Shown here piece after piece: positions 739 to 34,578 of a stretch of DNA of 38,365 nucleotides. Source of the stretch: Reclinomonas americana ATCC 50394 (taxonomy: Eukaryota); the NCBI GenBank assembly GCA_048213135.1, contig PS015333.1:1-38365 (forward strand), written 5' to 3'. The first letter of the stretch is position 1. Every line of letters begins with the position of its first letter. Below the pieces are notes generated by a model. The model had not been told where the DNA came from and ran no database searches. It saw only the letters and a list, made by a program, of their open reading frames with translations. Position numbers and translations under genes: made by a program.

Positions 739-3700
739 TTATATGTTGAGCCGCTGCTTGATGCGCTGGAGGTAACGGACGGTCTGCGAGTCTGGCGCCG
801 GATGACCTCCCTCAATGTCTCGTATTAGTTCGACGGCACCCGCAGACGCCACAACCGCACGGCATGCGCGGTTGGAGCAGAGGTTGCCAAGCGAAAACAG
901 CGCAATCTTGCGCGCACTGCTGCGGTTTTGCCGAGCAGCTCGCATCAGCTCCTGGATGGCGTTGTGCTCAATCAGGTCGTCACAGAGGGTGTGCGAATTG
1001 CGTACAAGGTTGCCCAGAGCACCTGCACAGAGGAAGACGGCGATCAGCACGCACACACACACACATAGGCCAAACTGCGCACACATACACACACACAAAC
1101 CGGCTGCATTAGCGCGTGTCTTCTCGTCCGAGTCCGTCAGCAGGCGCACCAGCGGCGGAATGCAGGTCTTCAGGTGCGGATACAGTGCGGCCGAGTGGAA
1201 AGCAGCGTTGCCGATCGCAAAACACGCAAACTTGCGGGTTTGCGAGTCGGGATCAGAGCACCGGTCAATCACCACGTCGAGGATCTTGAATCTGGTGTCG
1301 CCACACTCAACGGTTAGCAGATGACAACGAGACAAGGGTCAGAGACATACGTACACACACCTTACAAGATGCACATAAAAATACTCGCTGTGACGACACA
1401 TGTTGCCGACCAGATTGCACGTCTTGGCGCGCACGCTGGGATCGGGATGAGCGAGCAGTTTGGCGATCAGCCCGTGCGCAATCAACGACGAGTCGATGTG
1501 CGGGTAAAAGTCCTTGCTGATGCGGGCCAGTTGCGACACAATGAGCAGCGTGTCAATCACAATTCCCGTGGGAACGGCCTTGCTCGAGTCTTCGGGCGCC
1601 GTCAAGAACTCTTGGACTCGCGACGAGTCGAGGCCACCAAACTCCACAAACTGCTCGGCAAACACTGTCGATCCGAGCACCAGGCGCGATAATAGACCTG
1701 CACAGAAACAGGAAAGTGTGAGAAGATGATGCGTGGCATGGCGTACATCAATGAGCTGGATCGAGTGCGCACCCAGCGGCAACTCCCAAAACTCCTTGTC
1801 GAGGAACTTGGTGCTCCGAATCACGTTCTTCACCAGACCCTGCGAGAACACACATCGTCAGCGACGGCTGGGAGACTATCCAACACGGCAGTGTGCGCGG
1901 GGCGACAAAACCTCAGCGTAAAATACATCTTGTGCCTGCTTCGTCACCGACTCGGAGCACGTGGTCAGGAAGCACAAATAAAAAACGGAGATGAGGCGGC
2001 TGATGACGCTGCCGAGCGAGGAGGTGCCTTGACGTGCCGGAGGCCTGCATCGAAGCGTGAGGGGAGGAANNNNNNNNNNNNNNNNNNNNNNNNNNNNNNN
2101 NNNNNNNNNNNNNNNNNNNNNNNNNNNNNNNNNNNNNNNNNNNNNNNNNNNNNNNNNNNNNNNNNNNNNNNNNNNNNNNNNNNNNNNNNNNNNNNNNNNN
2201 NNNNNNNNNNNNNNNNNNNNNNNNNNNNNNNNNNNNNNNNNNNNNNNNNNNNNNNNNNNNNNNNNNNNGCTCAACCACTAAGGAAAAGAAAGAGAGACTC
2301 GTGTCACTCACCACGCGGCAATGGCCTGCAAGCACTCGGGACTGAGGATGCTGACCAAGTTGCCGAGCAGTTCCTTGTCGGTGAGCACACTATCGCAGGC
2401 CACATTCTTGCTGCTCATGTAATCGTACGTGTAGCGCACAGCGTACAGCAAACCAAATGGCGAGAGCTGCATAATCGCGGCGTCAACAACTGAGCATCTC
2501 ATCGCCATCAACCGCAGTGCACACCCTATACCTCGCATGTTGAGTACTCGCCACCCGTCGGCGGGAACAGTTGGCAGATCGAGTGCCGCACGCCCTCCCA
2601 CACATTCGCGGTCTCCAGCGTCTCAATCACCTCCGGCGATTTCTGCAAACCCCGACAAAAAAAAATCAGTATTCATCGATCTCCTGGCCACACTCACACG
2701 ACGCACCAGAGCCACAGCTTCCGCCAGAAGCGCGGCGAAACCATCATGGAAACCAGAGTCGGGATAGCCGTAGCCAGTGCCTTCCAGACGGTTGAGCCGG
2801 TTCTGCTCAGGGATCTGAAATAATAAAGGAGCAGATTGTTTGAGCAAGACATGAAAGTCGAATCATGTGCGCGCGCAATGCACACATAAACACTCACCGC
2901 AATGCACAGCGCCCGGGCAATACTCGACCACAGGGCACCGGATGTCAGCGAGAACCGATCGACAAGTCGAGTGACCACAGCCTGCCGTTCTCCCGGTGGC
3001 ACAGATTCCGGCAGACGAGTACTCTGGTGCGGCGCGCATCAGTGAGCAGGTGTCAGCGCATTTGCGAATTAACCACACACGCACCTGCTCGAACGCGAGA
3101 ATGCGCGAGAAAGCCCACGAGGCTGCGGATCCAATGAGCAGCGACAGGTGAACGCCCGACACGTTGCGAATACAGGCAGCTGCTCGCCGGCACAGTGTGT
3201 CACCGATCTCAGCCGACAGTCTGCGTCATCGCCACTATCAGCACAACGCCACAAAAGGACACGGAAATGAAATGAAGAAACGGCGGGTCATCACGCAACG
3301 TTGGTCGCGCATTGTGTGGCGGTGTGCTTTCGAGGAGCACCAAAATGGAGACAATGTGGAAAAACAGGCCGAGATCTTCACCTTCCAGCTCGTCTGCACC
3401 AACGAGACAAGAAGAGCGTCAGCGCAGAAAGTACATGACAAGCACTCATGGGGGAGCGTGATGATCAACGAAACTGAGAAGCGAATTGACGACCGCCGGC
3501 AGTCCAGGCAGCTTCAGAATCTCCACGCCAAACTTGGGCGAGAAGCGGCAACATTGAAATACGACCTGTGCAAAGAAAAATGCCAACATGGTCAGTGGCA
3601 TCGACGCGCTTCACGAATAAAGGAGCGGCGCAACTCGTAGCAGGTGGGTGAATGGCACATGCTGCTGCCTCGGTGTCGACAATAGCGCGAGGACGGCACG

Positions 3701-4618
3701 CGGGCCATTCTCCGTGCGCAACGTGTCGCCGACGTCTTTACGAATCTGTGCGCGACAGTGGTTGGTTGGCCGCGAAAAAACGCACACATACGCACAGACA
3801 GCTGGCGGCACACGCAACAATCAAATCAAAGTTCATGGTGCGACGCGTTTCCCGTACAGCTGCGGCCTTGGTGTAGGGGAACGGCAAAATGAACTCGGAG
3901 CTGAGTTCGTCGGGATTGTGTGTCGGGTGCACGGCGGCCGACAGCGCCTCGATAACCAGGGAAACACCCTCTGTCACCGCCATCAGAACGGCGAAAAGCT
4001 CCCGCAAAGTACACAAAGAGGCGGGTGTGCGGCACATACACACCTTGTCCACCGAATCTCTTGGTTGAGTCGCCCACCAAAATGCTCGCAATATCCTTGA
4101 TGGCCTTGGAGCGAGCCGCCATAAAGTACGCTCGATCGGTGCCGGCTGGGTCGGCCGCCAGAGCGCGCAGAATAAGCACGGCAATCTGCACCACGAGCAT
4201 GTCTGTCAGCGCCACGCGATGATTCGTCTCGTGCTTCTCTCGTCACACCGCTCACCCTCAGCAAGTCGGCGTGAATGGCTGGCGAGGCCGTCGGCGGGAG
4301 ATGCGCAAACACGGCAGAGTACACGTTGAAGAACATTTCCCACACGTGCTCCGGGTAGGTGCTCGACGAGATGCTGCGCAGCGAGTGGTACGCCACGCTC
4401 ACCAGCAGCGAGCCCACATTCGGATGGAATCCGCTCTCCACCAAATCTGTACCCGCATTATCGCGTGTCAGTGAGGGGAAGAGGGGAAGGGAGAGGGAGA
4501 GGGGGAGGGAGAGGGAGAGGGAGAGGGAGAGGGAGAGGGAGAGGGAGAGGGAGAGGGAGAGGGAGAGGGAGAGGGAGAGGGCGAGAGCGAGAGGGAGAAG
4601 GAGGGAGGCACCGAGACT

Positions 4619-4691
<73 letters not shown>

Positions 4692-7006
4692 GGAGGGAGG
4701 AGGACGGAAGAAGAANNNNNNNNNNNNNNNNNNNNNNNNNNNNNNNNNNNNNNNNNNNNNNNNNNNNNNNNNNNNNNNNNNNNNNNNNNNNNNNNNNNNN
4801 NNNNNNNNNNNNNNNNNNNNNNNNNNNNNNNNNNNNNNNNNNNNNNNNNNNNNNNNNNNNNNNNNNNNNNNNNNNNNNNNNNNNNNNNNNNNNNNNNNNN
4901 NNNNNNNNNNNNNNNNNNNNNNNNNNNNNNNNNNNNNNNNNNNNNNNNNNNNNNNNNNNNNNNNNNNNNNNNNNNNNNNNNNNNNNNNNNNNNNNNNNNN
5001 NNNNNNNNNNNNNNNNNNNNNNNNNNNNNNNNNNNNNNNNNNNNNNNNNNNNNNNNNNNNNNNNNNNNNNNNNNNNNNNNNNNNNNNNNNNNNNNNNNNN
5101 NNNNNNNNNNNNNNNNNNNNNNNNNNNNNNNNNNNNNNNNNNNNNNNNNNNNNNNNNNNNNNNNNNNNNNNNNNNNNNNNNNNNNNNNNNNNNNNNNNNN
5201 NNNNNNNNNNNNNNNNNNNNNNNNNNNNNNNNNNNNNNNNNNNNNNNNNNNNNNNNNNNNNNNNNNNNNNNNNNNNNNNNNNNNNNNNNNNNNNNNNNNN
5301 NNNNNNNNNNNNNNNNNNNNNNNNNNNGCATCGTCTCTCCATCTCGGTCAACTCCTCGTCCACTGCACACACACAGTGAGAGGGAGGAAAGAGGCCAGAT
5401 CATTTCCGCACATACGCGCGCACATACACGCACCTGTCATGGTCGGAGGTGCTGCAGAGCCAGAACCACCAGCGGCGGCCGCAGATCGCGTCTTGCTCTC
5501 TCCCGGGCGTTGACGGGCCGACATGAGTTGCGCGTTGGAGTGCGTCTCGTACGACTGAAGCGACAGCGACGGCACTTGGCCGGTGACGGCGCCGTCGCTG
5601 GCCGACGCAGCCGCCGCTCCAGCAGACGCAGAGGCGCCAGAAACCTGAGAGCGTATTATGCGAGATGCCGATGGCGGGTGTCGCAACAAGTGCAGCAGGC
5701 GTTGCCGGCCGAGATCGTTGCGATACAACTCTTCACGGTCGGCACTGGAGGGAGCGGCGAGTGAGTTCACAAACCTCATAGCAGCAATGGGATAATGCAA
5801 GCGTCGACCCACCGCTCTTGATCAGTCTCCTGCACGAACGGATGCTCGGCCAGCGCCGGCCAGTTGAGTCGCTTCGACGGCGTCTTGTGCAACAGACCCT
5901 TCAGGAAGTTCTTGAAATCGGCACTCTGCATATTCCCCCCACAAACAGGTGAGAGACGCAGAAGAGGAGAAGGCGAAGGGGAAGGGAAGGCAAAGGGGGC
6001 GGACCATGTTGCGCGGGAACTTGACGGGATCCTTGACGATGAGGTGAATGAGCGAGTAAATGTTGTTGGTGTAGAACGGCGGCTGGCCGACAAAGAGCTC
6101 GTAGAGAATGACGCCAAGCGACCACAGATCCGCCGTGTTGTTGTACGGCTGTTCCTGCACGAGCTCGGGCGACATGTACAACGGCGTGCCCTTGATCGAG
6201 GTCAGCACCATCGTGTTGACCGACATGGCCCGCGCAAAGCCAAAGTCGCACAGCTTGATCACTCCCGACGACGACACGAGAATGTTCTGCGGCTTCATGT
6301 CGCGATGGATGATGCGATTCGCGTGCAGATACTCCAACGCGCGCACCAACTGGCGCGCAATCGACTGCACCACATTCTCCGGCAGCTGCTGGTCCTCCTC
6401 CAAAATCTCAAACAACTCACCCTGCACGCAATAACAGTGAGAGAGTGTGGCGTGAGTGAGAGAGACTTGCGCTCCTCATGCGTCACCTGTGCGTACTCCA
6501 TGACGACACAGAACTCGTCGGGTGTCTCAAACGCGTCAATCATGAGAATGATGTTGGGGTGATCGAGCTTGCGCAAGATCTCAATCTCTTGTCGCAGGTT
6601 CTTCAGATCGCGTTCTGTCTTGTTGTGTTTCGTGATGAACTTCATGGCCACAATCTGCCCCGTGTGCTTGATGCGTCCCTGTTCAGTGAGAGAGAGAAGA
6701 ATGAGAGAGCGTGTGTGAAAGCTGTGCGACAACTGAGGGGCAGCAGGGAGAGAGAGAGAGCGAGTACAGAGAGAGAGCAAAAGACAACGAATGTCAAAGA
6801 GAGTGTGTGTGTGCGTGTGTGTGCGTGAGAGAGCGACATCTCTCTCGGTTTGTTTGTGAGCGCGCGCGCGCAAATCATGTGTGAGTTCGACTTCTTCTTC
6901 TTCCTCGTCTTCTTCTCTCACATCACAGAGTGTGTGTGCACGCAACTTTGAAGACGCGACCAAAGGAGCCTTCGCCAATCACCTCCAGCTGGTGATAGCG
7001 TTGCAT
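739..7006 (-). CDS. STK36: Fused/STK36 (TIO/Tsunami-type) Ser/Thr kinase with C-terminal armadillo/HEAT repeats; about 20 exons, interrupted by two N gaps
   Basis: Exon1 7006-6947 [20 protein letters not shown]; exon2 6678-6487 [15 protein letters not shown]...LRQEIEIL; exon3 6421-6005 [10 protein letters not shown]...HRDMKPQN...DFGFARAM...[21 protein letters not shown] (Fused-family signature). C-terminal ARM repeats [47 protein letters not shown]. Stop TAA at 739-741. Confidence 0.93.
4475..4715. repeat. Compound purine microsatellite (GAGAGG)n/(CAGA)n/(GA)n in an STK36 intron, next to an N gap
   Basis: Directly visible tandem repeats; they explain the poly-ER/SP/LP ORFs. Confidence 0.95.
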
Positions 7007-7104
7007 GATGGAACGCAACGTTGTGATGAGAGACTGAAGAGGGACAATTGCGCATCCCGCCAATTGTAACTTTCGCACCTGTACATTAAGTGTTTTTGCT
7101 CTCC

Positions 7105-10100
7105 TTATCTGCGACCTGCCGGCTGCTGCTGCTGTGGTGGTGGACTGGCAACGGGGACCTCGCCGGCAGCATCGTCGACTGTGGCGCGACAGGTCGGGCA
7201 GTGCTTGTCTTGCACGAGCCAGCGGTCGACACACGCTTTGTGGAATTGGTGGAAGCATGGCAGCGTGCGGATCTGTGTGTGTACGTAAGCAGTGAGCACG
7301 TGTGCACGGGGCGGCAAGAGAGAGAGTAAAGTGGCTTCACCTCTTCGCCCGCAGAGTACTCGCTCAGACACACTGGACAGCTGCGGCGACAAAGGTGGTG
7401 AGCAACAACTCTGCATCTTCAATCTGCGGAGCATACCTTTCAGATCCCTCGGCCATGCGCTCACCGGGCTGCATGACATGCACGCGGGTACGCTCGTCGA
7501 CTTGCGTGTTTGACAGGCCGCCTGCACGCCCGATGCGCTCCGACAACTCCAGCAGCTCTTCGTACGTCTGTGGCTCGTGAGGTCGGATGCTGCCGCGTCC
7601 GAGGAAGTCGGCCTCGGAGTGCTCATCGTCAGAGTCTAGCATCAGCTCCCGTCCAAAGATCTCGCGCATGTCCTCGTGTTGCCGATGAAGCACGGCCAGC
7701 AGCTGCTGCATGCTTTCGATGGTGCCCTCAGGCTGCATGAGAATGCGCGGCAGCACCGGCAGCAGCGAGCTGGAGGGGCGCCGCATGGCCAGTATGCTCT
7801 GCTGGTTCTCCTCGGCTTGCAGCTGTGCCGCCAGCTCACTGTCGGCCTCTTCGACGGTGGCCGAGCGACTGCCCAGGCTCGAGCGCGAGTGCTGCTGCAG
7901 CAAGGGTTGCGGCTGCGGCGGCAGCGGCGGCTGTCGCAGTCGCTGCTGCTGTTGCTGCTGCTGCTGTTGAATTTCACGCATTCTCCTGTCTTCCTCGTCC
8001 TGCAGTCGCTGAGCCAGCAGCGCATCCTCTTCTGTTGAACAGGAGAGAGATTTGAGAGGGGAAAGAACGGAGACACGAGACACGCCAGCTCGCCGACGAA
8101 CCACTGCGGGAAGGCTGCACGAACGAGGGTTGCCGTGCGACAGGCTGCGGCATCACGGCAGTCGGATCTGGTCGGAGAGCAGTGAATTAAACAAAATACC
8201 TTGGGATCGTGCACGTCGTGTCGCGGAACTCACCATACGGATTGTATGCCATTGGTGCCGATTGACGGGCACCCGCCGGCGACGTGGCATCCGCCGCCGT
8301 CATCGCGTACGGACGGATATGGCCACTGTCGCCGCCGCCGTCATCATCATGGTCGTCGTCAAATCCTGCCAAGTGGAATGGCCGCAGCGGGGTCATCATG
8401 ACGGTCGCAGACAATGGCAGCACCGGTGCCGGCAGTGGCTGCGCTGCCGCGGGGAGTGGTGGCATGGAGGCGGCCACAGCAGGGGAATGTGAGGCACTGC
8501 GGGAAGAGGAGTGGCGGTAAGCGACACACACGCATGCAACACGCATCGACGTGGACGACGAGCACGCAACGCATCACGCATGGCGGCTTGAATGGACAGC
8601 GTGTCGTACCGCTGCTGCAACTGGGGCGACAGATGTGCTCGAATTTCCGCGTCTGATATGGTACAGGTGCACTGCGGGGCCGGGCACACAAGCCGCTCGG
8701 GGAACTGTTCGGCCACTTGGACCGTCATGGCGAGATGTTGATCGATGCACTGCTCACGAACATTGGTAAATGAGGAGACAAGTCAGCTACAATAATGATA
8801 AGTGAATCGACCGACCTGGTTGCAGAACAAGTGGCCGCACTCTGTGCATCGCAGACGGACGTTAGACCGAGGCCACGAGAAGCTACTGTTTTTCCCCGAC
8901 TCACCGCGTAATCTGGTACCGTCGCCGGCAATGTTGCCACGACACAAACTGCACACAGGTCGCTCAACAGACTCCCTGTGAGTGCAAGCCGGCGTGAGAG
9001 TTGCACTACGCGCGATACGATCGACGACGACGACATCAAAGATTACGTCACCACGGTTGCGCTGCTGTCTGGCGCGCATGCCTCGCCTCATCGTCCATCT
9101 CCACCAGCACAAAATCGCCGGAGACAGGCCTCAACGTGAGGTGCTCCACCGACGAGTCTCTCGCCGCCCCTTGCTGCCACTGCTCACGCTCCAGCTGCGC
9201 GCGGCTTCGTGAATTTCAGGCTGCAGACACGATGCACTCGCAAGGCAACGCACCTTGGTGGCATGGGTACGAACTTGATCGAGAATATTCATGCGACTGC
9301 TGGAGAGCGAGCGGCGAATGGATGACAGCGCATTGCGCCCCATTGAGCCCTGCCGTACCATGCTGCCGCCGACATCTGTACCACCATCCGCCCGCTGCAC
9401 ATTGGCCTGCAGCGCACTCTTCAGGCGATCCACCCACGCCGCCTCACCCACCGAGAGACCTGCGAGAGCGGGCGCCATGAGTGTATCAATTGTGCGAGTA
9501 CGCAACAAAACACACGCAACTGCTCTCCTGCTCGGGTGTGAGCAGCGTGATCTGTTGCAGCACTTGATGGCAGGTCGCCAGCTCCGACGCAATGCCCACA
9601 TGCATGACTTGCGCGCCGTTGCCACTCATGCCGAGGGAGATCAGTCGCGAACCGATGGTCACAGCGGTCGCCACCTCTCTTTTGTGATGCAACGGCGACG
9701 AGTCATCGACGTCTTCGTCGGAGCCATCGTCACCCACATGTGCTGCGGCCGTCGCAGCCGAAGTGGCAGTGGTAGTGGTAGTGGTTGTCGTCGTTGCGGA
9801 CACACCGCCTTCGCTGCTGGTCACGGGAGTTACCGCACTCATCATCGAACGCAGCAGAATGGTGCAGCCGTCGGCCGTGAGGTTGCACCTGGCGAGATGC
9901 AGTGCTCGCAAATTGCTGCCGCCGACCGCAGTGGACGGTGCGCAGAGAAAGCGTGCCACCATCTCAGCACCGTCCACACCCAGTGACTGTCACAATCGGT
10001 GATGAGGTGCTACTCAAAGAAGAAGAGGGAGAAGAAAACGAGTGCGCAACGTTGTACGACAAGTCGAGAGTGGTGACCAAGTGCGCCGCACGCAGCGGTC

Positions 10101-11004: not shown

Positions 11005-11035
<31 letters not shown>

Positions 11036-14828: not shown

Positions 14829-15046
14829 AAAACACTCAAGCGACTTCCCAGTTGGCGAAGCACAGCCTGTCGACTGTTATTATATGAACACGCGTGCGAA
14901 AACCCAAAGTCTCTGCGTGTCGTGCATCCCCCTGCTTGAAGACTGTTGCACCACAGTGCGCGCGCTAGTCGATCCCTCGTCGGTGCAGCGGTATTGACAC
15001 ACCGTCACGCGCTGCAAAAAATGCAAGGTGGCGCACCACACTGCAC

Positions 15047-16971: not shown

Positions 16972-17049
16972 CGCGACGGTGAAAGAGACGACGGACGTCC
17001 GCATCGATGCAGGACTTGATTGCATTTGTCACGTCTCCGCTCACCACCG
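16972..17049. promoter_or_regulatory. Very short divergent (bidirectional) promoter region between the BTB gene and the beta-helix gene
   Basis: The inferred ATGs at 16971 (-) and 17050 (+) face away from each other about 80 bp apart. Inference only. Confidence 0.35.
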
Positions 17050-23000: not shown

Positions 23001-24912
23001 AGGCGGAGCACTCCTTCTCGACACCCAATCTTTGTGCCACAATAGTACGTTCATGTACAATGTGGTGCAGAGTCCACTTGGCCCTGCTGCCGGTGGCGCG
23101 GTCCTCCTCGGCACCAATTCACTGCTCAGATGGGCCTCAATCGTCTCCAAGCTTCGCCATGTTCTTTTCCTGCACCCTTGCTCGCGTCGATCGTACGACT
23201 GACTGTTGCACACAGTACGGTGACTTCCACAACTGGCGGTGGTGGAATCGGTCTCATTGGTCGTGGTGGCTCCATCCTGTCTTGCAGGATCCTGTCCAAC
23301 ACAGCCGTTGGCGGCACCGGCGGCGGCGGCATTGCAGCCGTGTCGGTGGCCACGAATACCACAATTGTAGACACATTGCTGGCTAACGGTGCAGCAGTCC
23401 TTGGCGGCGCGGTCTCCCTCATCGCTATCGACTCCGCAATCACGTTTTCCAACTGCCAGTTGGTGAACAATCGCGCGTCACTGAATGGCGGCGCTATCCA
23501 CGCGTCGTCATCGTCGCAAGTCGTCTTGTCATCCAACACCCAGGTGTCGAACAACGAGGCCGGTGAATTCGGCGGTGCGATTTTCTCTGCCTCGTCCGCG
23601 TCGGTGGTCGCCAGCGACTCCATTCTGCAGAACAATCGGGCGCAGTTCGGCAGCGGCTTATTCTTGGCCGACTTGAGCGTCGCCTCATTCACCCACGTGC
23701 AGCTGGTCAACAACACCGCAACGTCGGTGCGTACGCCTTGCCTCACTTCTTTTTGCACACGCTACTTACTGTGCACTCATTTCTTGTCAGGCCGACGGTG
23801 GCGCGACTTATGTGACCGGTTCCGCGCAACTTTCGCTCACCGACTGCCTACTGCAGAGTAATGTGGCCACGGTGCGTTCAGTCTTGGTGGTGACATTTTG
23901 ATTGTCTCTGTCTTTCTCATCATGATGTGCGTGTCGGCGTTGCAGCTTGGCGGCGGTGGTGTGTTTGCCGAGCAACTGGCCGAGATCTCCAGCAACGGAT
24001 GTCGCTTGCTCTCCAACAGTGCGTCCACCAATGGCGGGCACGTGTACATGGCCGGTCTCAGCACGTGGACAGGTAATCAACACAGCGCAGTTTGATACAT
24101 GTGAGATGACTGGCACCGGCTGAGAAACGATGTACTCGCAAACACAGATACCGGCAGCACATTTTTGCAAGGTTCGGCCGACTTGCAGGGCGGTATGCTG
24201 TATGCCGGTGGCGCGTCTGCTGTCCAGCTTTCTGGCTCGTCGGCGCAATTGTCGTCGGCCGAAGCTGGTGGCGCGTTGTCGATCACCGAAACCGCATTTG
24301 TCAATGTTACCAACAGCCAGCTGAGCAGCAACTCGGCTGCCTCAGGTGCCGGCGCATACGTGCAGAATCAGTCGACTGTCCGCATCATCGGCTCGCAGTT
24401 CAACGCCAACGCGGCTGTGAATGTGGGCGGTGCACTGATGGCAACCGGGACCGGGTCACTACTGTTGCAGGGCTCATCTTTTGTTGGGAATACTGCGTTC
24501 GCGGGTGACGGCGGCGCCATGTCACTCTCCTCCAGTTTGCAAGCGGCAGTAATGGGATGCACATTCACTGGCAATAGCGCGCTTCGCGGTGGCGCCATTT
24601 CTGTGAACATGACCGCCCTTGATGCGGAGCAGTGGAGTGTCGGACCTGGCGATGTGGTGGCGCTGGGCTTGATATTGCAGCAGTCACAGTTTGTGAACAA
24701 CTCTGCCGTATTGACGGGCGCTGGAGACCTTGTCGGTGGCGGTGGTGGCGGTGCGCTCTTCTGGAACGCGCTGGGTGATCCGTCGTCGCTCGACGTCATG
24801 CACAGCTTCGTGGAGGCCCTGTCGCCGAACTGGGCCACGCTGCTGGGGCTGTCGTTCAGCGGCAATGTGGCTCAGTACGGCAACAACACTGCGACCTGTT
24901 GCGTATTCACGC

Positions 24913-24960
<48 letters not shown>

Positions 24961-26234
24961 GTATGCATTCTCGGCGCTCACGAATTACCTCTGGCTGCAG
25001 CACCGTACACGGCCGCCGCCACACTCCAACAGTCGTCCGAAGGCTCCATGCCGCCTTCGGTGACGGAGACACGCGCAGTCGACGTGCATGTCCTCGATGT
25101 GTTTGGATCGCCGATTTCGTCTCTGGACGGGTGGGTGTTGCAAGTGTCGTGCCCGGCGTGCACCAACCAGGTCTCGTTGGAGCGTGTGTGTGAGGGCCTT
25201 TCTTCGCTGTTCTTTTCATTCGTTTTTCTCTGTATTATGCAGTCGGCACATATCACAGAGGCCACCACCAACGGCGTGGCCACTTTCCAACTTCCCGTGG
25301 TTGCGCCTTCTGCGGGACAGAGCTCCACGTTTAACATCGCGGTGCAGAGTGTCAATGCGGCGTTTTCTACGGCACCACCCACTCTCAATTTGGGGATTCT
25401 CCCGTGTCCTATCGGAGAAGAATACGTGGACAGTGTCGGCTGTCAGGCGTGCCCTCGTGGCGAGTTCTCGCTCACTCAGCAATCATGTCAGGTTTGTGTA
25501 CCAGAAATTGCTTTCGTTCTTCGTGTGCTCATCAACGAACGCATCTCACTGCACTGGCATCAGCCGTGCCCTCTCGGCATGACATGTTACGGAGGACCCG
25601 ACGTGACTGTCAGCAGCACGCGGTGGGCTTTCCCGCTCGCCGTCAACGCACCACCACCGCTTCCCATCACCACCTATCTGTGTCCCTACGATTTCTGCGA
25701 CGTGGGCGATGCCGGAGCCACTCCTTACGCACCAGGTGCCGATTACTGTCGCGCCGACAGCTTCCGTGACAGCAACACTCCACTCTGCGGCACCTGCGTT
25801 GTTGTGTATCGAGGGATTGTGGCGCCCCCTGACCTCACTTTTTCGAGTCGCGATTGATTTGAGGTGGTGCTTGTGCAGAGCGGGTACGCCGAGTGGAACT
25901 CGGAGTGCGTGGAGTGCACTTCGCCATCTGCGTACGAGATTGCCATGCTGTTGCTTAAGGTACGAATGTTGAAAAGAGAGCAACGAGCAGCAGCTGCTCA
26001 CACGCACTTTGCCAGATGTGGGGCATTGCCGTGTTCACCGTTGCCGCGTTCCGAGGTGGCAGGTGCGTGTGTGTGAGAGAGAGAGAGAAAAAATGGGCAT
26101 GGCCACCTTCATGCCAAGTCATCTTAAACATTTCGTGCACGTGCGTACAGCGAGGCGGCTGCCGAAATGTTCTTGTTTACCTTGCAAGTTCGCATCATGT
26201 CATGTGCACCATGGCAGTTTGTGCTGCCGCTTAT

Positions 26235-26328
<94 letters not shown>

Positions 26329-28014
26329 NNNNNNNNNNNNNNNNNNNNNNNNNNNNNNNNNNNNNNNNNNNNNNNNNNNNNNNNNNNNNNNNNNNNNNNN
26401 NNNNNNNNNNNNNNNNNAACAGACGGCCACCCTTCTCTTCTACCCGAGTGTGACACTGTTGACGCTGAGCCGCATTGTCAAGTACTGGTTTCCGCGCTTC
26501 TTCCAGGGTCGGTGTCCCTTCTACGTTGACGGCCTGGGTGAACTTGGGATGCGGTTGGTGTCGCCGGCCATGTATGTGTTCTTCCTGTGGTTCACGTACG
26601 GCTTGCACCGCTTCTCCGCTTGGTTGATGCTGCGGCGAAATTGGTGGGGTGATGCCAGAGTGACCCCTCGCGGTCACGCATTCGCTTCGTGGGTATATCG
26701 GCGGGCCAGCATCGATCGGTGCGCACTTGCATGCAGGTCGTTTGTTTACGAAAAACTTGTGGGTTCTGACGACGAATGTGCTTGCCGCCGCAGGTACATT
26801 GTGTCGACTGTGGTCCTCGGAATCGGCGTGTACGAAGGCATCGTCGAGACGGCAGTCACGTTTTTCACGTGCACGCAAGTTGGCTCCGAGCGAGTACTCC
26901 TCTTTGTGCCGAGTGTGCGCTGTGATGCGCAGTTGCGTTCTTTGTCATTCGTGCACGCACGTTCCGCTCCGCAATCACACCGCGCGTCGCACGCAGTTGG
27001 GCGTCGCTGAGACCACTCTTCGGAGCCTTCCTCGTCATTGCTCTCCTAATCCCGGTGCTGATTATCGTCTGGACTCTCTGGTTACGCCGCAGCAAGCGAC
27101 TCGAGGATGAACGAGTTGCGGGGGGATGTCGGAATGGAGAGTTGCCATGTGTTTGCTTGTCTCTGATCTCCGTGTGCGTGTGCCAGACTCGCCTTCGCTT
27201 TGGCGTGCTCTACAACTTTTACCGCCGCGTGAGTATCTCGCCGAGCGTTGTCGTGATTGATCGTCTGTCTCTTACGGTGTATGTGACTATGCAGCCATAC
27301 GTGTGGTATCAGGGATACCAGCTCATCCGTCGACTCGTCGTCATTGGCGTGCTGTTCCCACTCGCCGCCAGTGGCCAGTTGGATATCATCCCGGTCGCGT
27401 TGTGGGCCGTTTGCATGGTACCGCCCATCGTTTGCACCACTCACGTAGTATTTGTTTTGTTGATAAGTTACGTGCGGTGCAGGCATTCCTCGCCATCCAC
27501 CTGCGCCTGCAAGCGTACGCTCTGTCGCGTAACAACAAACTGGAGGTTGCGTTTTTTTCGTGTTCTTACAAGTACGACAGTTGATCAGTGATCTCTTGTC
27601 TCTCTAACATGCGTGAGCGGGCTGCAGACGGTTGGCCTGGTCACGTTGACCATCATTGCAGTGCTGTTTTCGAATCGTCTCTCGACAGACTTTCAGCGAA
27701 TCGCCGCCCTCTGCGTTCTCTCCATTGGCTCCTTCATCGTGGCACTGCCGATCGTCTTCAAGTGGATGAACACCGTCCGTCGCATCTACGACATTGTGAG
27801 GGGACGGATTCAGCGCCGACGCAGTGCAGCGGCTGCCGCGGTGGCTGCGACTGCCGACGACCAGGAACCGACGGGCGTGTTGCTGTCAAAGTCTATGTCA
27901 ACGGGACTGTCCACGCCTCTGCTTGACGGCCAGTCGGACTCGACGGACCATGAGGCTTCGTCAACGGCGCCGCCAGATACAGAGCTAGAGATGAACCCTA
28001 TCGTCCCCAGATGA
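17050..28014 (+). CDS. Large surface protein: signal peptide, Pmp-like (GGA[ILV]/FxxN) right-handed beta-helix repeats, Cys-rich (GCC2/GCC3/ephrin-receptor-like) stalk, C-terminal multi-pass membrane domain; about 45 exons
   Basis: Signal-like LLLILSALLCVMGGVLA. Dozens of GGA(V/L/I/M) and S/TxFxxN repeats. Cys-rich CPIGEE...CQACPRGEFS...C|PCPLGMTCYGG...CPYDFC...PLCGTCVSGY. TM region with the RLRFGVLYNFYRR|PYVWYQGYQLIRRLVVI motif typical of protist TRP-like/'7TM' tails. TGA at 28012-28014. Start inferred (MHAQ|KAV..). Confidence 0.88.
24911..24958. repeat. (CA)n microsatellite in an intron
   Basis: Direct observation. Confidence 0.95.
26234..26328. repeat. (TC)n(TG)n microsatellite in an intron, running into an N gap
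   Basis: Direct observation. Confidence 0.95.
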
Positions 28015-28050
28015 TTAATAGATAAAGACATGTGTGGTACTTTTTTCATT

Positions 28051-30867
28051 TCATTCGGTCGCCCCGGAAACAGCAGCGGCGGCGGCGGCAGCAGCAGCGG
28101 CAGCAGCTTCGCGCTCGCGCAACATTCGCTCAATGTCGGCAGCTAGTGCACTATTCGGTCCGAAGCGCTTCTTGTTTCGAGCGACCTCCAGAGGCTTGAG
28201 GTTTTTGTGGTCGCGAGCCTGCATCATCTCCGGGAATCGCATAGCCAGCAAAATAATAATTGCCTGCGCAAGCATAGGGTTCGTCACGCACATGAATCAA
28301 ACAACGCACGCGGGACTCGCAGCAGCACACCTCAGTGTTCCGTCGCGACACAAAAACGGCCGAGTGCAGCACCGTGTACTTCCAGTCGCGAGTGACTGAG
28401 CGGAGCACAGACTCAGGTACCAGATCACTAGTCAGGAACAAGCTGAGGACAGCATAGTTGCCGGAGGCAGCGGCCTTGTGCACACTGAGCAACATTGGTG
28501 ACCAACGTGAGCACCGGCAGAGGGCGTTGTTGGCACATGAGAGGATGACACGCAACGCCGAGGCTCCTTTGTTGTCAAACACTTCGATAAGCGGCACTTC
28601 GTAGCGTCTTTCCAACAGCCACTGTGCCAGTTCCACCGAGCCTCTCGCCGAGGCGGCCCAGTGCAAAAGTGTGTGCCCGTCGGTATCGCGGGCGTCCCGC
28701 ACGCACAGCTCGCCAAACTTGTCCACCATGGCTTGCATGAAGTGCGCTTTGCAGCGACAGCTGGCAACAATCAGCAAGTGCTCCAAGTCTGTAACCTCGG
28801 CGCGGTACTCTGCGCAATGCGGCTCTCGCTCCATCTCCTCGCGGAGGAACAACATCATGCGCGGGTGTCCCACTGGCGAACAACGTCGGTGAGGAATGCA
28901 CTGCCGCAAACACACACCACCACCAATAACAGCTGTGCTCACGAAACTACTGGCGGCCCACTCGATCGGATACGTCGGCTGCGGTCCGTAAGCAATGTCG
29001 AAATGCGACGCGCCGCCCTGCAGACTTCGCGACCACAGCAGACTGGGGGCAATTTGGAGGAGGCGTTCCGCCGTCTGCAGATTGCCTTCGGACTCCCAGC
29101 TGACACATACGTGAAATCCATTGCGGTTGTACGTGTCACTGGTTTGCTAAACGCCATGAGAAAATACGAAATCACATTGCGCAAAATGGCAGTGCAAGGC
29201 TTGCACGCACGGTTGATTCAGTGCATGCATGAAGTCATCGTGTCCGTAGACGGTGTACAGCATGTTGACCATCTCCAAGCGACCTGTGCAGCGGCGACCA
29301 AAGGAGCACAACATTCGCGCTTCAGCAAACAGCAGCAGTCAAAGTTCACCAGCAGCAAGAGGTACACGCACCCCACATCACGGCGACGGCAAGCACATTG
29401 TGGTTCTTGTCGTCAGGCACCAGCAGGAGCGAATGGTCTCTCTCCACCATGAACTGGACCACCGGAACGTGGTTCTGTCGCGCGGCCACGTGGACTGCAG
29501 CAAACAATAAATGTGAGTCCAAGAACGCACGTCTGGCATCTACGAGGAAAGTGGGCACTCAGCTGGCCAGTTTGCCAGCGTAGTTTGCATCGTGCATGTC
29601 CGCCTTGAAGTCGACCAGCTTGCGCACCACATCCACGTGACCACTGACAAGATGGCGCGGTGAGAACAAATGTATGTGGACGAAACAGTCTGGGAAGACG
29701 CAACTTGGCGGCGGCGACATGCAGAGGGGTGTCGCCGCTTTCGCCCAATCGCGCAGTCGTCAAGCGAATTCGATCCGTATCTGACGGCTGCAACGACAGC
29801 AGCTGCTCCACCATGGCACTCTGGCCGGACTGTGACAGCCAGTGCAGCGGAGTGTAGCCCATGGTTCGCGACTCGCACATCTGAAACCCGTGACCAGCCA
29901 GGTGCAACAGTTGGATGAACGGAGCGTTGTCTGCCGGCAGGTGCTGCCACTTGGCGAACGAAGAGGCCACAAGCGGGAAGTGCTCAAGGAAGCTATACAA
30001 CGCATGGAACTCTTCGCGGTCCACTGTGAATAAGTACGGTTGCATCAAAAGGAGGAGTTCGTCGAACTGATCGCGCCAGACATTGACATCGTCTGCCGGA
30101 GCTGTATGATCGAGAACCGGGCGGTAAGACACAGATAATGACAAACAAGCCACTCGGATGCTTCTCGAACCTAGCGCACAGTACTTTGCGTACAATCCGA
30201 GAGGCACCAACAGCTGCTGATACTCGTCTACGATTTTGAGCAAGTCCTCTTTGCAGTGCAGGCGATGTGGCTTCTTCAGCTTCCAAATATCCAGGAGAAG
30301 GCGTGCCTGCAGGAAGTGCGACTTGTGAGTTGCAGATCGAGCTTCGATTGCGTCGCGAGCCACGCACCAACGAGCGCCATGTTTCGCACACTTCGGAGCC
30401 CTGGCTTTCCACACGCGGCATGTGGACGTCCAGTTGTGCGATGTACTGGTACTCAAATCTGTACACATCTCGTGCCTCTGCGACCACGGCGTCAAGCGCC
30501 TCCTTTGTCTGCGCACGACCTCGCGGTGAGCGCCATCGAGTGGCCGGCAGGAAGGCTGGATCTCGTCACGCAACTGAAGGACCCTTTGCTCGCCAGCAAT
30601 CGTGCCACTGCTGTGCAAATTGCAACCACAGAGCCGAGACGATCGTCTGGTTCATCAAACGTCGCTCGCTCTCCTCCAGGTTGCAGTTGAACTTGTGACT
30701 CTTCGGATCGCGAAGCCACTCCGCCAGTGGTGGAACAACGCTCAGTGTCGCGACGCCTTCCGCACTTGCCGTCTGTCCTTTGTCTGTGAGTTACCGTGGA
30801 ACAAATACCGCGGCGTCGCGCTACAAACACACACCGTTTGCGTAGAATACACGAGGAAGCGATCCAT
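28051..30867 (-). CDS. Ankyrin-repeat protein with an uncharacterised helical N-terminal region and a poly-Ala tail
   Basis: Ankyrin motifs GYTPLHWLSQSGQ, GDTPLHVAAAN|GHVDVVRKL, GKLA|IHVAARQNH, GHTLLHWAAS, GASA|VHKAAASGN, KYTVLHSAV. Inferred start MDRFLVYSTQT at 30867. Stop at 28051-28053. Confidence 0.85.
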
Positions 30868-31101: not shown

Positions 31102-34100
31102 GTGGCTGCTGCTGGGCCTTCACCGTGAGCACAGTGCTCTCCACTGGATTGTGCCTGCAGACCAAGGGCCAGGAGCGGCAAGTGATTGCGCCGCAGGACG
31201 TCCTCTCTTGCTCCGGCACACAGTCTGGGTGTGCCGGCTACCACTACTACCACTCGTTCCGCAAGATGAATGACGACGGTCAGATGGTGGTCTTTGATCA
31301 GTGTCACGTGTACACTGCGCGCGACAACACCATGGGCGAGTCGTGCGCTGCGCGCTCGTGCACCAATCCGCGCACGGTGGGCGGCACGCAACTGCGTGTT
31401 CTCAAGGACGCGCTGTCGGCAGACAGTGAGAGGGCGCTTATGGAGGCCGTCGTGTCGTATGGTGCCGTGGCCGCCGAGCTCAACATCTATCCGTCGTTCT
31501 ATCAGTACGCAAGTGGTGCGCAGCGCAGCTTCTTTTGGCCTTGCGTGCTGCTCTTCATCAGCTCATGACGACTATTTTCTGCGCTTTTAGGTGTGTACGA
31601 ACCGCAGTCGTCGGAGAAGATCGAAGGCAGTCATGCCATCGCAGTCATTGGGTGGGGCGTGGAGAAGGACAAGCCGTACTGGTTGCTGGTCAACTCGTGG
31701 GGCACATCGTGGGGCGAGAATGGCTTTGTGCGCATTCTGCGCACGCCCGACGCCATGAACAAGGTAGATTCATGGTCGTGCGTGCACCGTCTCCCACCGT
31801 GGATATGCTCACTTCGTGTGTGCCTCGGTGCAGCTCGGCTTCCAAAACTTCTCGTGGGTCGAGCCCAAGTACACCATGTGCTCCACCCCGTGCGTCAACG
31901 GTGTCCTCGACGCCGCATGCACACAATGCACGTGCCGCGACACATGGACTGGTCCTGCTTGCGACAGTTGCGCACAGGCGCTCCATTGCAATTCGCCATC
32001 TCGTTCTCTGCTGATTGGTCATCCTTCCTTGCACAGCTTGCGGTCTTACGAGCTGCGAAAACGGCGGCGATGTGAACAAGACGACGTGCACNNNNNNNNN
32101 NNNNNNNNNNNCATCGGGATGGCCGACGAAGGGAAGTCGAGTTGAGGCAGCTGGAATATCGGCACATTGCAAGCACCGTTGGCGGAGCCGGAGGTGCTGA
32201 GTGGCATGCTGGCGGCACTCCACGGGCCCGTCGCCGACGCAGTGACTGCACGCACGCGGAAGTACGAGAGTCGACCGGTGGCCAGGCCGGTGATGGTGGC
32301 GCGGTCGACCTTGTGCACGCCGGGGCGCGGTGCCGCGAGGGTGCGCTGCACCGACTGCACAAAGGTGACATCCACCGAAGCCTCCACCTCGTACCGCACA
32401 ATGTCGGCGGCGGCGAGCCCCTCCGGACGCAAGAATGACAGCACAAGGCGCGTAAACGACGGCGGGTTGCACTTGTCAATGTAGGGTGCCCCCGGTGCCG
32501 GTGGCGATGCAATGGCCGCCGACGTCGAGGTGACGGCTGCGTTCGGTTGTGGTGCATGCCGGTGTGTGACAGACTTCAACACGGTTTCGTTGATGTTGCC
32601 ACCCAGATTTGCTCTGCTCGCACCACGAGTCAGCGGGCAATTGGAGTGACGTCTTTTTTTTTCTTGACAACTCACCCGAGCTGCCGGCTGTGATGGTGAC
32701 ATCGGTGCGCAGGTACACCTTGATGCCGCGATCCTGCTGGAACTCGTTCAGCCCCAACCATCGCAGGTACCAGATGGAGTAGCGACCGACACCGAGTGTC
32801 TGATGCGAGTCAGCAAGCAACACCAGCGGCGCCCGTCAGACACAAGAGGGAGAGAGGAACGCAACAGTGAGATCAATCAGAATATCCTGCACGGTGGTGG
32901 TGCACACGTCTTCGCAAGGCACACCGGCCTTGAGCAAGAACTGCCACTGGCCGGCGGCATCGCGCGGAGTCTTGTCATACGGAGTCACCACAATGGCGTC
33001 CTTGTGGTTGCCCTTGAAGCCGTTGATGCGCACAATGAAGTCGCTGCGATGGCACAACTGCACAATGTCGCTGTGGAAGGGGAACAGGCTCTCGGTGCAC
33101 CGGTCGCCAGCGAATCCATTCGGGCAGTTGCACNNNNNNNNNNNNNNNNNNNNNNNNNNNNNNNNNNNNNNNNNNNNNNNNNNNNNNNNNNNNNNNNNNN
33201 NNNNNNNNNNNNNNNNNNNNNNNNNNNNNNNNNNNNNNNNNNNNNNNNNNNNNNNNNNNNNNNNNNNNNNNNNNNNNNNNNNNNNNNNNNNNNNNNNNNN
33301 NNNNNNNNNNNNNNNNNNNNNNNNNNNNNNNNNNNNNNNNNNNNNNNNNNNNNNNNNNNNNNNNNNNNNNNNNNNNNNNNNNNNNNNNNNNNNNNNNNNN
33401 NNNNNNNNNNNNNNNNNNNNNNNNNNNNNNNNNNNNNNNNNNNNNNNNNNNNNNNNNNNNNNNNNNAAACCAGAATTCATCGACACGTGCCCTTCGAACA
33501 AGGGCATGGAGCTGTCATGCTGCACGAGCAACACCTTTTCCAGTTGCGATTGGTGGAGAGCCGCGGTGTGTTTTTAATGCTTTGCTCATTGCGAGCGCTG
33601 CAGATCTCAAGATCGACTTGACGAATCGCACCACCGTGTACACGCGTGGTGTGGAGGGATTCGGTGCAGCATTGGAGCGCATGGCCAACCTGGCGGCGGC
33701 CTGGGTGCACACGATGGTGACGGGTGACGACGCAACGAAGCGTCTGGCCACGGCACACGCCGACGCGCTGGCCACCGTGCAGGCGTTTGTCAAGTCACGC
33801 GGTGCCGACGTCAACCGGTGCTTCACGGCCATCCAGCAGTACCTGTCGGGGTTGGCGTGCCTGGCGTGCCGCTCCGACTGGAGCACCTTCATGTCCACCA
33901 GTGCCACGGGCATGACCACCTTGCGGCTGGCCACGAGCACCTGCGACGCGCTGGAGGCCGGCTGCACCGGTCTGGTCGACAACTACTGGCGCGCTGTGGC
34001 CGGTATCCGTACTATTCTGGACCTGGTGACCGACTCGTCGGTGACTCGACCGTTTGAGGTGCCGGCGGCGTCGCCCTGCGATACTGTTGTCGCGCCGGCT

Positions 34101-34578
34101 GTGACCGCCACCAGTGCCGCCACCGCGACCACCACCACCGTCACCACGCCGACCACGACCACAGCGAGCGCGGTGCAATGCAGGCGTCATGTTTGCGAGA
34201 CTGTGTTCCGCGGTCCGCACGTACGCCTCGCTGCACCCAAGGCGTCATCGCAGAGTGGTGGCACGAGCTCCACCACAGCGGCGGTTCTGGCCGAGGAGAT
34301 GCTGGTGTTGGCCGGTGCCATGGAAGACACGACGGCGGCCACGGTCTCAAACACGTACGGCGGCTCCGGTTTCGATGTGTCGACCTCGGGTGCCTCGGCA
34401 AACCTCGGTTGCGTCGCGACACAATGTCGTCCCTCCCTCCACGGCTTTCGTCTCACTCGCTTTCCACGTCGCAGCTCCGCAACGGACCTCAATGTCGAGC
34501 GGCCACCGTTCGAATGTGTGGTTGGTCGGCGTCTGGCTGGCCACCCTCCTGGTGACCGCCGTGTGCAGTATCATATAA
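31102..34578 (+). CDS. Papain-family (C1A) cysteine protease fused to 2 EGF-like domains, a beta-sandwich, FN3, a folate-receptor-like Cys-rich domain and a GPI-anchor signal. The N-terminus is missing in a gap and segment 32112-33133 is inverted in the scaffold.
   Basis: Catalytic motifs GCCWAF, GSHAIAVIGWG and YWLLVNSWGTSWGENGFVRI. EGF CVNG...CTCRDTWTGPAC and CENGG...CT/CNCPNGFAGDRC. FN3 ATITGLATGRLSYFRVRAV...GPWS (read on the minus strand of the flipped piece). Cys-rich TCPS...SCCT...RCFTAIQQYLSGLACLAC...LRLATSTCDALEAGC. Hydrophobic C-terminus VWLVGVWLATLLVTAVCSII* ends at 34578. Confidence 0.8.
32112..33133 (-). other. Contig segment between two N gaps in inverted orientation relative to its host gene
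   Basis: Reverse-complementing it joins in frame with no missing bases at both ends: ...ACG TGC AC|G TGC AAC TGC and ...ATC CCG ATG|AAA CCA GAA. Confidence 0.88.

Follow-up and report, generated by a model that had tools for sequence, protein, structure and literature searches.

A probable second class of 5' splice sites, displaced by one base, in a 38-kb window of the Reclinomonas americana genome

The conserved G (+5) and U (+6), counted from the cut, are among the most constant features of nuclear introns. Gene models of the 38,365-nucleotide stretch of Reclinomonas americana DNA analysed here (the window) support a real donor class, GTTGCG(T), that is co-dominant in the window with GTGCGT and in which this G and U lie one nucleotide further into the intron. 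The two registers can be written as GT-G-[C/A/T]-G-T, with G at +5, and GT-T-G-C-G-T, with a GCGT(G) core, G at +6 and T at +7.

Introns were modelled with different amounts of prior knowledge of the donor. The donor-blind model, a self-trained gene finder in which donors were restricted only to GT or GC, drew on an acceptor weight matrix, intron length and coding potential, and returned 144 introns in the 38-kb window. Its minimum exon of 18 nt was adopted after blind runs permitting micro-exons had yielded absurd exons of 4-6 nt near 26932-27115. A donor-aware model seeded from it gave 143 introns, a separate earlier donor-aware run was also made, and a first pass with no signal model whatever gave 117. 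At roughly 140 modelled introns per 38 kb, the window is intron-dense. The junctions discussed below come from gene models whose only training data were the 38-kb window itself, with six of them checked against motifs or homologues.

GTTGCG occurs 53 times on the two strands, against 42.1 +/- 6.7 in shuffled sequence (5 of 100 shuffles reach 53). This abundance is by itself nothing unusual; what stands out is the use made of the copies. The donor-blind model took 12 of the 33 sense-strand copies as donors where about 1.6 were expected (p = 1.4e-8), namely those at 3634, 3818, 8570, 9520, 10050, 21606, 24898, 27546, 28556, 29704, 32865 and 34408. The corresponding counts were 15 of 52 for GTGCGT (p = 7.9e-9) and 8 of 41 for GTGCGC, and beyond these three no hexamer was significant as a donor in this model. 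Per sense occurrence GTTGCG was used at 36% and GTGCGT at 29%, bearing out the claim of an earlier sequence-only reading of this DNA that the two are co-dominant within the window. Even the signal-free pass called eight donors of each kind among its 117 introns. The same reading had proposed comparing GTTGCG frequency with that expected from independent donor positions; run within the window on 139 donors, this comparison gave 0.74 predicted and 12 observed, a number attained in none of 20,000 column shuffles, and so speaks for the class.

Could the class be a gene-model artefact, the frequency of GTTGCG merely reflecting a codon usage with TTG and GCG, and the true donors lying elsewhere? The hexamer is frequent, with 11 copies above the shuffle mean; 12 sense-strand copies clearly lie in exons or go unused; 5 of the 20 sites claimed by the sequence-only reading have an in-frame rival or lack model support; and donor-aware runs are self-reinforcing. 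We nevertheless consider an artefact very improbable, given the rate of donor-blind use, an antisense control in which nine introns were predicted and none of 20 antisense GTTGCG copies served as a donor, and the six independently fixed junctions described below. It is also opposed by the base at +7, a position invisible to all gene models, which is T in 16 of 21 GTTGCG donors and in 6 of the 32 other occurrences of the hexamer (p = 4.9e-5).

GTTGCG accounts for 17 of the 143 introns in the donor-aware model (12%), where the main class contributes 17 GTGCGT and 8 GTGCGC, and for 21 of the 147 listed introns (14%), a list that includes two pairs of alternative models. The share of about 20 in 100-110 introns (~19%) first proposed was too high, the modelled share being nearer 12-15%. 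When all donors with a recognisable register are considered, 26 of 98 are of the shifted kind. GTTGCG donors are present in 8 of the 11 gene regions, in agreement with the window-wide extent originally described; its genome-wide extent is an extrapolation, and generalising from models of one 38-kb window is not yet safe.

Table 1. Introns modelled or proposed to begin with GTTGCG in the window.
Intron	Strand	Donor	Length (nt)	Gene and context	Support
6679..6946	-	GTTGCGT	268	Fused/STK36 kinase, glycine loop K/GR, phase 0	donor-aware models; tblastn
3746..3818	-	GTTGCGT	73	Fused C-terminal region	blind model; homologue alignments
3566..3634	-	GTTGCGC	69	Fused C-terminal region	blind model; homologue motif
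3221..3299	-	GTTGCGT	79	STK36 gene, ambiguous	earlier donor-aware run only
9987..10050	-	GTTGCGC	64	LRR-RING gene, LDLSYN/SLG	blind model; repeat spacing
9460..9520	-	GTTGCGT	61	LRR-RING gene	blind model
8497..8570	-	GTTGCGT	74	LRR-RING gene	blind model
14553..14615	+	GTTGCGT	63	PH-like gene	donor-aware models only; blind model reads through
19314..19378	+	GTTGCGT	65	beta-helix gene; absent from sequence-only reading	donor-aware models
21606..21676	+	GTTGCGT	71	beta-helix gene	minimum-exon blind model and donor-aware model seeded from it; not in earlier runs
24898..25000	+	GTTGCGT	103	beta-helix gene, (CA)n run inside	every model including signal-free pass
25300..25347	+	GTTGCGC	48	beta-helix gene; absent from sequence-only reading	donor-aware models
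26932..26996	+	GTTGCGT	65	5' of 118-nt exon	earlier donor-aware run
27115..27186	+	GTTGCGG	72	3' of the same 118-nt exon	earlier donor-aware run
27546..27627	+	GTTGCGT	82	beta-helix gene, C-terminal membrane domain	blind model
30478..30574	-	GTTGCGT	97	ankyrin gene N-terminus, ambiguous	earlier donor-aware run only
29644..29704	-	GTTGCGT	61	within ankyrin repeat (LHVAAA/N/GH)	blind model; Ank profile
28485..28556	-	GTTGCGT	72	within ankyrin repeat (KGAS/A/VHKAA)	blind model; Ank_3 profile
31967..32036	+	GTTGCGC (putative)	70	C1 protease gene, after EGF-like Cys-rich tail	in no model; weak
32800..32865	-	GTTGCGT	66	FN3-domain gene	every model including signal-free pass
33543..33603	+	GTTGCGA	61	Cys-rich gene adjoining N gap, first intron	donor-aware models only
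34408..34474	+	GTTGCGT	67	same Cys-rich gene	blind model

All 20 intron first bases claimed by the sequence-only reading fall on the hexamer on the strand assigned to them (Table 1). Twelve of them are donors in the blind model, accounting for every GTTGCG donor that this model called; the donor-aware model has 15, adding 6946, 14553 and 33543, and the earlier donor-aware run 18. Nineteen appear in at least one model and one, 31967, in none; there, an open frame with a Cys pattern reaches the site, and a different donor, equal in phase, is joined to the acceptor at 32036. The four sites that had been grouped under a single protease belong to three genes: the C1 protease gene on the plus strand (31967), the FN3 gene on the minus strand (32865), whose orientation is fixed by an fn3 Pfam match, and the Cys-rich gene on the plus strand (33543 and 34408). 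The related donors GTTGAGT (18777) and GTTGTGT (21233, 25801) are likewise present as reported and were modelled as donors. A second GTTGCGT lies inside the 9460..9520 intron, at 9501-9506.

Six junctions have anchors outside the gene models, in alignments with homologues, in the coordinates of Pfam profiles or in the spacing of repeats. Those among them that had been attributed to invariant motifs in the kinase (K/GR), the ankyrin repeats and the LRR (LDLSYN/SLG) were supported by tblastn, profiles and repeat spacing, respectively. In the kinase, residue 37 of the homologue P0093, used as tblastn query, closes one HSP at 6947 and opens the next, leaving the protein contiguous; the blind model missed this intron because it is long. 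Homologue alignments cross the 3818 junction (DLI/IRKDV) without a gap, and the 3634 junction (LR/VVFQ) falls within a motif that three homologues carry unbroken. Splicing at 10050 gives an LRR spacing identical to that of LHLARCNLTADG, a repeat that the next exon encodes without interruption. At 29704 the upstream exon stops at about position 11 of the Ank profile and the next exon carries the repeat on, while downstream of 28556 the exon begins at position 6 of Ank_3; the single-exon E-values behind this ankyrin continuity are weak (0.02-0.2).

Other sites have competitors. The 3299 donor faces an in-frame GTTTCT donor at 3281, 18 nt downstream, that shares its acceptor in a region of weak homology, and 30574 faces a GTGACG donor 5 nt downstream that uses a different acceptor. 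In later models, the introns at 26932 and 27115 are replaced by two exons of 35-37 nt with non-consensus donors; the GTTGCG introns appear plausible here, and the 118-nt exon that they would enclose encodes one clean transmembrane helix. The 14553 intron may be retained, since its length is a multiple of three and it holds no in-frame stop.

The position tables mirror one another after a shift of one base. Donors with G at +3 (n = 60) have C at +4 in 28, G at +5 in 44 and T at +6 in 29 cases; donors with T at +3 (n = 35) have G at +4 in 20, C at +5 in 16, G at +6 in 18 and T at +7 in 18. The base following GTGCG (+6) is T in 17 and C in 8 introns, and that following GTTGCG (+7) is T in 16 and C in 3. 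These counts support a second class that is the ordinary motif displaced by exactly one base, much as the sequence-only reading had described it, as ordinary donors with an extra base. The second class is also more strongly biased to GCG than the main class (21 GTTGCG to about 5 GTTGAG or GTTGTG), which counts against a pure one-base shift, since such a shift does not predict the bias.

Judged by their sequence, both classes seem best explained as ordinary U2-type GT-AG introns. GTTGCG introns end in CAG in 21 of 21 cases and main-class introns in 69 of 72; the GT/AG rule was imposed by the models and is a premise for model-only sites, and the boundary is dictated by the reading frame at the six junctions that are anchored. 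Median lengths are 69 and 65.5 nt, respectively (Mann-Whitney p = 0.16), the pyrimidine fraction is 0.59 in both, and a CTNAY branch-like motif lies 5-45 nt from the 3' end in 16 of 21 GTTGCG and 40 of 72 main-class introns. U12-type introns carry a long conserved RTATCCTT-type 5' box directly at the intron start; the GTTGCG[T/C/G/A] starts have no such box. Nor do the introns resemble introner-like copies, the 21 sharing, by inspection, only their first 7-8 bases and the CAG end. A one-base slide of both boundaries is not general, as G follows only 4 of the 21 introns.

A single U1 snRNA probably recognises both donor classes, meeting the second one position downstream, and we favour this reading with modest confidence; which RNA pairs with GTTGCG, and in which register, we infer from donor and exon sequence. 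In the second class, U1 would pair one position downstream, with the intron +1G replacing the exon -1G, or, in an equivalent description, one of the two U's would be bulged. Cleavage would stay before the first G, and the U6 and U5 steps would either accommodate an additional nucleotide separating the GU from the paired +6G/+7U or skip that pairing. A change from G to A at -1 is expected under this scheme, because the U1 base that normally faces -1G would be occupied by +1G, leaving -1 to pair with the U1 base after it. When the 21 GTTGCG donors are compared with the 72 other donors carrying +5G, position -1 is G in 4 and 40 (Fisher p = 0.005) and A in 8 and 4 (Fisher p = 0.0005), respectively; the -1G contrast is weaker among blind-supported donors (3 of 12 and 38 of 68, p = 0.06). 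This depletion of -1G is not expected of a bulge register in which the exon pairs normally. The exon-side case for a shift over a bulge is thin, however, because the main class has no clear preference for A at -2 or C at -3.

Pairing energies are less favourable to a standard U1. With the textbook U1 5' end, which may not be that of this organism, RNAduplex gave means of -1.7 kcal/mol for GTTGCG sites and -4.4 kcal/mol for GTGCG sites; with the same sequence and pseudouridines treated as U, it returned the shifted pairing for one GTTGCG example, with poor energies throughout. Because the duplexes at GTTGCG are so weak, frequent use of this donor is unexpected for a standard U1, which favours the alternative that the snRNAs themselves differ: either the U1 5' end fits GTTGCGT, in which case it is U1 that would bulge when paired with GTGCGT, or each register is served by a U1 or U6 paralogue of its own. 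The GCGT(G) core common to both classes points the same way, as do the weak textbook duplexes at main-class sites and the roughly equal use of the two hexamers, as if neither were a poor substrate. So does C as the commonest base at +4, which textbook U1 does not favour and which likewise counts against a single standard U1. The U1 5' end is, however, among the most conserved eukaryotic RNA sequences and is kept in GC-rich algae with GTGCG donors, and the change at -1 matches the expectation for one U1 that pairs in a shifted register. Within the window no snRNA gene was found: an Rfam search gave nothing at gathering thresholds and, at E <= 1, four chance matches only, three of them on the repeat stretch 7895-7969. 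We regard altered snRNAs as unlikely.

A reader other than U1, such as the U6 ACAGA box or a protein, might instead bind GCGU(G), tolerate a spacing of 0 or 1 nt and direct cleavage at the nearest upstream GU. The core and the bases after it are the same in both classes, exon-side signals are weak, and in a human tandem donor the cleavage site is reported not to be set by U1 position, with a non-canonical U6 register proposed (PMC11162779). Such a reader is still quite improbable in our view: the spacing is strictly 0 or 1, with no +2 class among the modelled donors, and a purely intronic reader would not produce the difference at -1.

A broader and more tentative suggestion is that a two-register spliceosome is routine in this lineage, about a fifth of introns having the conserved G-U one nucleotide deeper inside the intron than is the case for any well-studied eukaryote, with U1 and U6 accepting the offset or a second or re-tuned U1 at work. 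If so, this would be a natural system in which an ordinarily almost constant feature, the register of the 5' splice site, varies among the introns of one genome. A genome that used the displaced form as heavily as the standard one would supply hundreds to thousands of natural substrates for studying cleavage-site choice by U1, U6 and Prp8, and a test of whether U6 pairing can shift; splice-site models of fixed register would then mis-annotate a sizeable fraction of the organism's genes, which may partly explain the absence of its proteins from the protein collection searched. The window may, in this sense, show how flexibly the splicing machinery reads intron starts.

Close relatives for comparison are scarce. 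Identity to the kinase exon peaks at 88%, with green algae at the top, and for the C-terminal region it is only about 40% in every case; outside the conserved kinase domain, the window's proteins have no close green-algal relatives. The nuclease exon had three matches (31-37% identity), and a protein atlas search gave no usable match. Metagenome loci for the kinase reach 82% identity at best, with no close relative, and the 80 loci yielded 19 called junctions, one of them shift-like, too few for an outgroup census. Literature searches with the hexamer and heptamer brought up primers, telomerase templates and aptamers but nothing on splice sites; these searches, together with those on bulges, protists and U1, found no published account of abundant displaced donors.

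In human, shifted or bulged pairing has so far been seen as a rare means of rescue. Roca and Krainer reportedly described in 2009 a shifted U1 register at a handful of atypical human 5' splice sites. Human shifted and +2/+3-bulge U1 registers have been experimentally validated (PMC4856993; PMC11162779). Tan et al. 2016 predict 68 sites for the +2/+3 bulge, 54 after curation, among 201,541 (0.03%), and put all non-canonical registers combined at 1.5-2.1% of those sites (PMC4856993), in line with the small-minority precedent assumed by the sequence-only reading. The donors described in a diplonemid study are G/GTATG, unlike GTTGCG (PMC12621601). The STAT3 tandem donor resembles the present case in that the GU normally pairing with U6 42/41 lies one position off +5/+6; there it lies one position upstream (+4/+5) and concerns one human exon, whereas here it would lie one position downstream (+6/+7) in many introns (PMC11162779). 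The human Bulge-1 (+2/+3) register, in which one U, at +2 or +3, bulges out while pairing further downstream follows the consensus, is indistinguishable in sequence from a shift save for exon-side preferences. The human shifted register, as reported, is a close counterpart: U stands at +3 and the usual +5G at +6, U1 sits one nucleotide downstream and the first GU is cleaved. Its core, however, is AAGU and it serves a handful of sites, whereas here the core is GCGU and one hexamer opens about 12-15% of modelled introns.

The GTTGCG donor class is confirmed as an observation, and its interpretation finds partial support: as a displaced, co-dominant donor class it holds for this window on the basis of donor-blind usage and position tables, and a modified spliceosome would be a candidate explanation. 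All 20 positions that the sequence-only reading had listed as first intron bases carry GTTGCG on the strand it gave. With 53 copies in the window and 42.1 ± 6.7 in shuffled sequence the hexamer is no rarity, and codon usage favours TTG and GCG; because the count is unremarkable, the question is one of usage. We employed a small hidden-Markov gene finder combining a three-periodic coding model, intron composition and explicit intron lengths on both strands, trained on this window only and started from the kinase HSPs. In a first pass, with GT/GC...AG as the only splice signal, GTTGCG and GTGCGT shared first place among donor hexamers, each serving 8 of 117 introns. The blind model, in which gene strands were fixed from Pfam matches and score, had an acceptor weight matrix, a length prior and a minimum exon of 18 nt, and contained no donor information. 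It returned 144 introns and, out of the 2,888 GT sites that lay on permitted strands, chose 139 as donors: GTTGCG at 12 of 33 copies (p = 1.4 × 10⁻⁸), GTGCGT at 15 of 52 (p = 7.9 × 10⁻⁹) and GTGCGC at 8 of 41 (p = 6 × 10⁻⁴). No further donor hexamer was significant in this model (GTGTGT, for example, 8 of 110). All 12 of its GTTGCG donors had been listed beforehand. When the same model was forced onto the antisense strands, only 9 introns appeared, and none of the 20 antisense GTTGCG copies was used.

The refuting condition set by the sequence-only reading, a GTTGCG frequency no higher than independent positions give, does not hold in this window. Independent position frequencies predict 0.74 GTTGCG donors among the 139 blind donors, where 12 were seen; none of 20,000 column shuffles reached that number. 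In addition, the donor-aware runs, which also score donor bases, considered +3 to +6 only, leaving +7 outside the scoring, and T occupies +7 in 16 of the 21 GTTGCG copies modelled as donors versus 6 of the 32 other copies (p = 4.9 × 10⁻⁵).

The position table covers the 131 introns that both the blind and the donor-aware model contain. Donors with G at +3 (n = 60) carry C at +4 in 28 cases, G at +5 in 44 and T at +6 in 29, while those with T at +3 (n = 35) carry G at +4 in 20, C at +5 in 16, G at +6 in 18 and T at +7 in 18. The base after GTGCG is T in 17 and C in 8, that after GTTGCG is T in 16 and C in 3, and the second base past either motif is most often G. Since the following bases match after a one-position shift, the second class corresponds to the first with an additional T after GT, as had been proposed. 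The 3′ halves of both classes are indistinguishable, with a CAG end (all 21 GTTGCG introns, 69 of 72 in the main class) and equal pyrimidine content; median intron length is 69 nt for GTTGCG and 65.5 nt for the main class, and a branch-like CTNAY occurs in 16/21 and 40/72, respectively. Compared side by side, GTTGCG introns have no other common sequence and are therefore not copies of a mobile introner; they also lack the U12-type box. Because G follows only 4 of the 21 GTTGCG introns, a shift of both boundaries by one base cannot serve as a general alternative.

The window (38,365 bases, 11 N gaps, about 56% G+C) is densely packed with short introns. Its gene map combines Pfam matches on single exons, tblastn and our own gene models, and positions are approximate.

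Gene regions of the window, with approximate positions
Feature	Positions	Strand
Fused/STK36 kinase	739-7010	-
LRR + RING protein	7100-11241	-
PH-like gene	13358-14968	+
BTB-BACK gene	15005-16807	-
Beta-helix repeat gene, about 60 modelled introns, membrane C-terminus	17000-28146	+
Ankyrin gene	28109-30867	-
C1 cysteine protease	from 31066	+
FN3 gene	32046-33119	-
Cys-rich gene, no family given	33506-34475	+
Endonuclease/exonuclease/phosphatase gene	34617-35973	-

In the protein encoded by the very large beta-helix gene (17007-28146, +), a long Gly/Asn/Ser-rich run of beta-helix-type repeats leads into a multi-pass membrane C-terminus; one of its exons, of 133 residues, had no Pfam match. The predicted 3′ ends of the C1 protease (+) and FN3 (-) genes overlap at 32037-32127, around a 20-base N gap (32092-32111). 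Long CT, CA and CCCTCT microsatellites lie within introns at 6679-6946 (-), 24898-25000 (+) and 4450-4715 (-), and account for the 268-nt length of the Fused intron, several-fold above the median. The segment 35984-38268, which holds no claimed site, has 65% G+C and long open frames on both strands, and its strand assignment is the least certain of the window; the + strand frame would encode a low-complexity acidic, Ser-rich protein and had no Pfam match. Rfam found no RNA genes in the window. Sub-threshold matches to isrG, mir-207 and MIR7526 at 7895-7969 (+) were rejected as chance matches to a repeat, since all lie opposite a poly-Gln tract (CAG/CAA) in the LRR-RING gene, on its antisense strand.

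Six GTTGCG junctions are anchored at the protein level, by homologues, domain profiles or the spacing of repeats. At 6946, homologue residue 37 closes one tblastn HSP at 6947 and opens the next past the acceptor, so that the kinase motif GRVFK/GR (slash, junction) runs gapless across the intron, as had been claimed. Three full-length homologues align uninterrupted over both the 3818 and 3634 junctions, reading DLI/IRKDV at 3818. The ankyrin junction at 29704 was borne out as well: the upstream exon stops at about ankyrin profile position 11 and the next goes on with GH. For the junction at 28556, the exon that follows begins at Ank_3 profile position 6; for both ankyrin anchors coordinates are continuous and E-values weak, because single exons are short. 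The LRR motif, at 10050, likewise fits: spliced LDLSYN/SLGVDG is spaced exactly as LHLARCNLTADG, which the following exon encodes without interruption. The proteins themselves are distant from known ones. The kinase exon reaches at most 88% identity to any collection protein, with green algae on top, and the rest of the Fused protein only about 40% to anything; the 223-residue nuclease exon had just three matches (31-37%). A collection of 5.8 billion proteins yielded neither a close relative nor proteins of the organism itself, and 80 metagenome loci contained no close relative for the kinase (best 82%). The lineage is under-sampled, and appears essentially unsampled at the protein level.

Support varies across the 20 listed sites: 12 are used by the blind model, 15 by the donor-aware model started from it and 19 by at least one model. 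The site at 31967 is in no gene model and is a weak candidate; an EGF-like Cys pattern extends up to it. At 3299 and at 30574 a rival donor is available in frame, 33543 appears only in models with donor scoring, and 14553 opens a 63-nt intron lacking an in-frame stop, through which the blind model reads. Sites 26932 and 27115 bracket a 118-nt exon that codes for a single clean membrane helix, where later models place two tiny exons with non-consensus donors; in our judgement the original reading is right. Modelled GTTGCG donors beyond the list lie at 19314 and 25300. Four sense-strand GTTGCGT copies are donors in no model (9501-9506, -; 7014-7019, -; 21744-21749, +; 17128-17133, +) and may be alternative or untranslated-region donors. 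One lies within the 9520 intron, 14 nt past the used donor, and one a short way 5′ of the Fused start codon, where it could be a 5′-UTR intron donor.

In the donor-aware model GTTGCG opens 17 of 143 introns (12%); adding four earlier-run sites gives 21 of 147 (14%), with two alternative-model pairs counted twice. The initial estimate of about 20 in 100-110 was of the right order and somewhat high, and window-wide use is borne out by GTTGCG donors on both strands and in 8 of the 11 gene regions. By register, 71 of the 147 modelled donors have G at +5, one more fits both registers, 26 have T at +3 and G at +6 without G at +5, and 4 are GC donors. The other 45, such as GTCGCA, GTGGTG and GTCTCC, match neither of the two; many are probably model errors, and a third, weak donor class among them is possible.

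The last exon base hints at how the second class might be recognized. G occupies -1 in 4/21 GTTGCG donors versus 40/72 other +5G donors (p = 0.005) and A in 8/21 versus 4/72 (p = 0.0005), a contrast that is weaker among blind-supported donors alone (p = 0.06). This pattern is what a shifted register, rather than a simple bulge, predicts: +1G would pair with the U1 base that normally faces -1G, and the exon base at -1 would face the next one along. U6 pairing normally uses +5G and +6U. Whatever U1 does, this pairing would need to shift by one base or be left out. Up to now a non-canonical U6 register has been put forward for a single human exon (PMC11162779). A re-tuned or second U1, the candidate raised by the sequence-only reading, stays a live rival to the shifted register, because duplexes with the textbook U1 5′ end have poor energies for GTGCG sites, at -4.4 kcal/mol, and very poor ones for GTTGCG sites, at -1.7 kcal/mol, and because C, contrary to standard U1, is the preferred base at +4.

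The literature searched, which covered few subscription journals, yielded no account of this donor motif, nor of any organism in which a displaced class is abundant; a prior description is possible. If RNA data bear it out, the class would be of real interest to splicing specialists. In human, both the shifted register, with U1 binding one nucleotide downstream, and the bulge register, with U+2 or U+3 looped out, are experimentally validated (PMC4856993). Among 201,541 sites, Table 3 of that source predicts the +2/+3 bulge for 68, a number that curation lowers to 54, and non-canonical registers altogether make up 1.5-2.1% (PMC4856993, Table 3; PMC11162779). The kind of site is already known; its scale here appears to be new.
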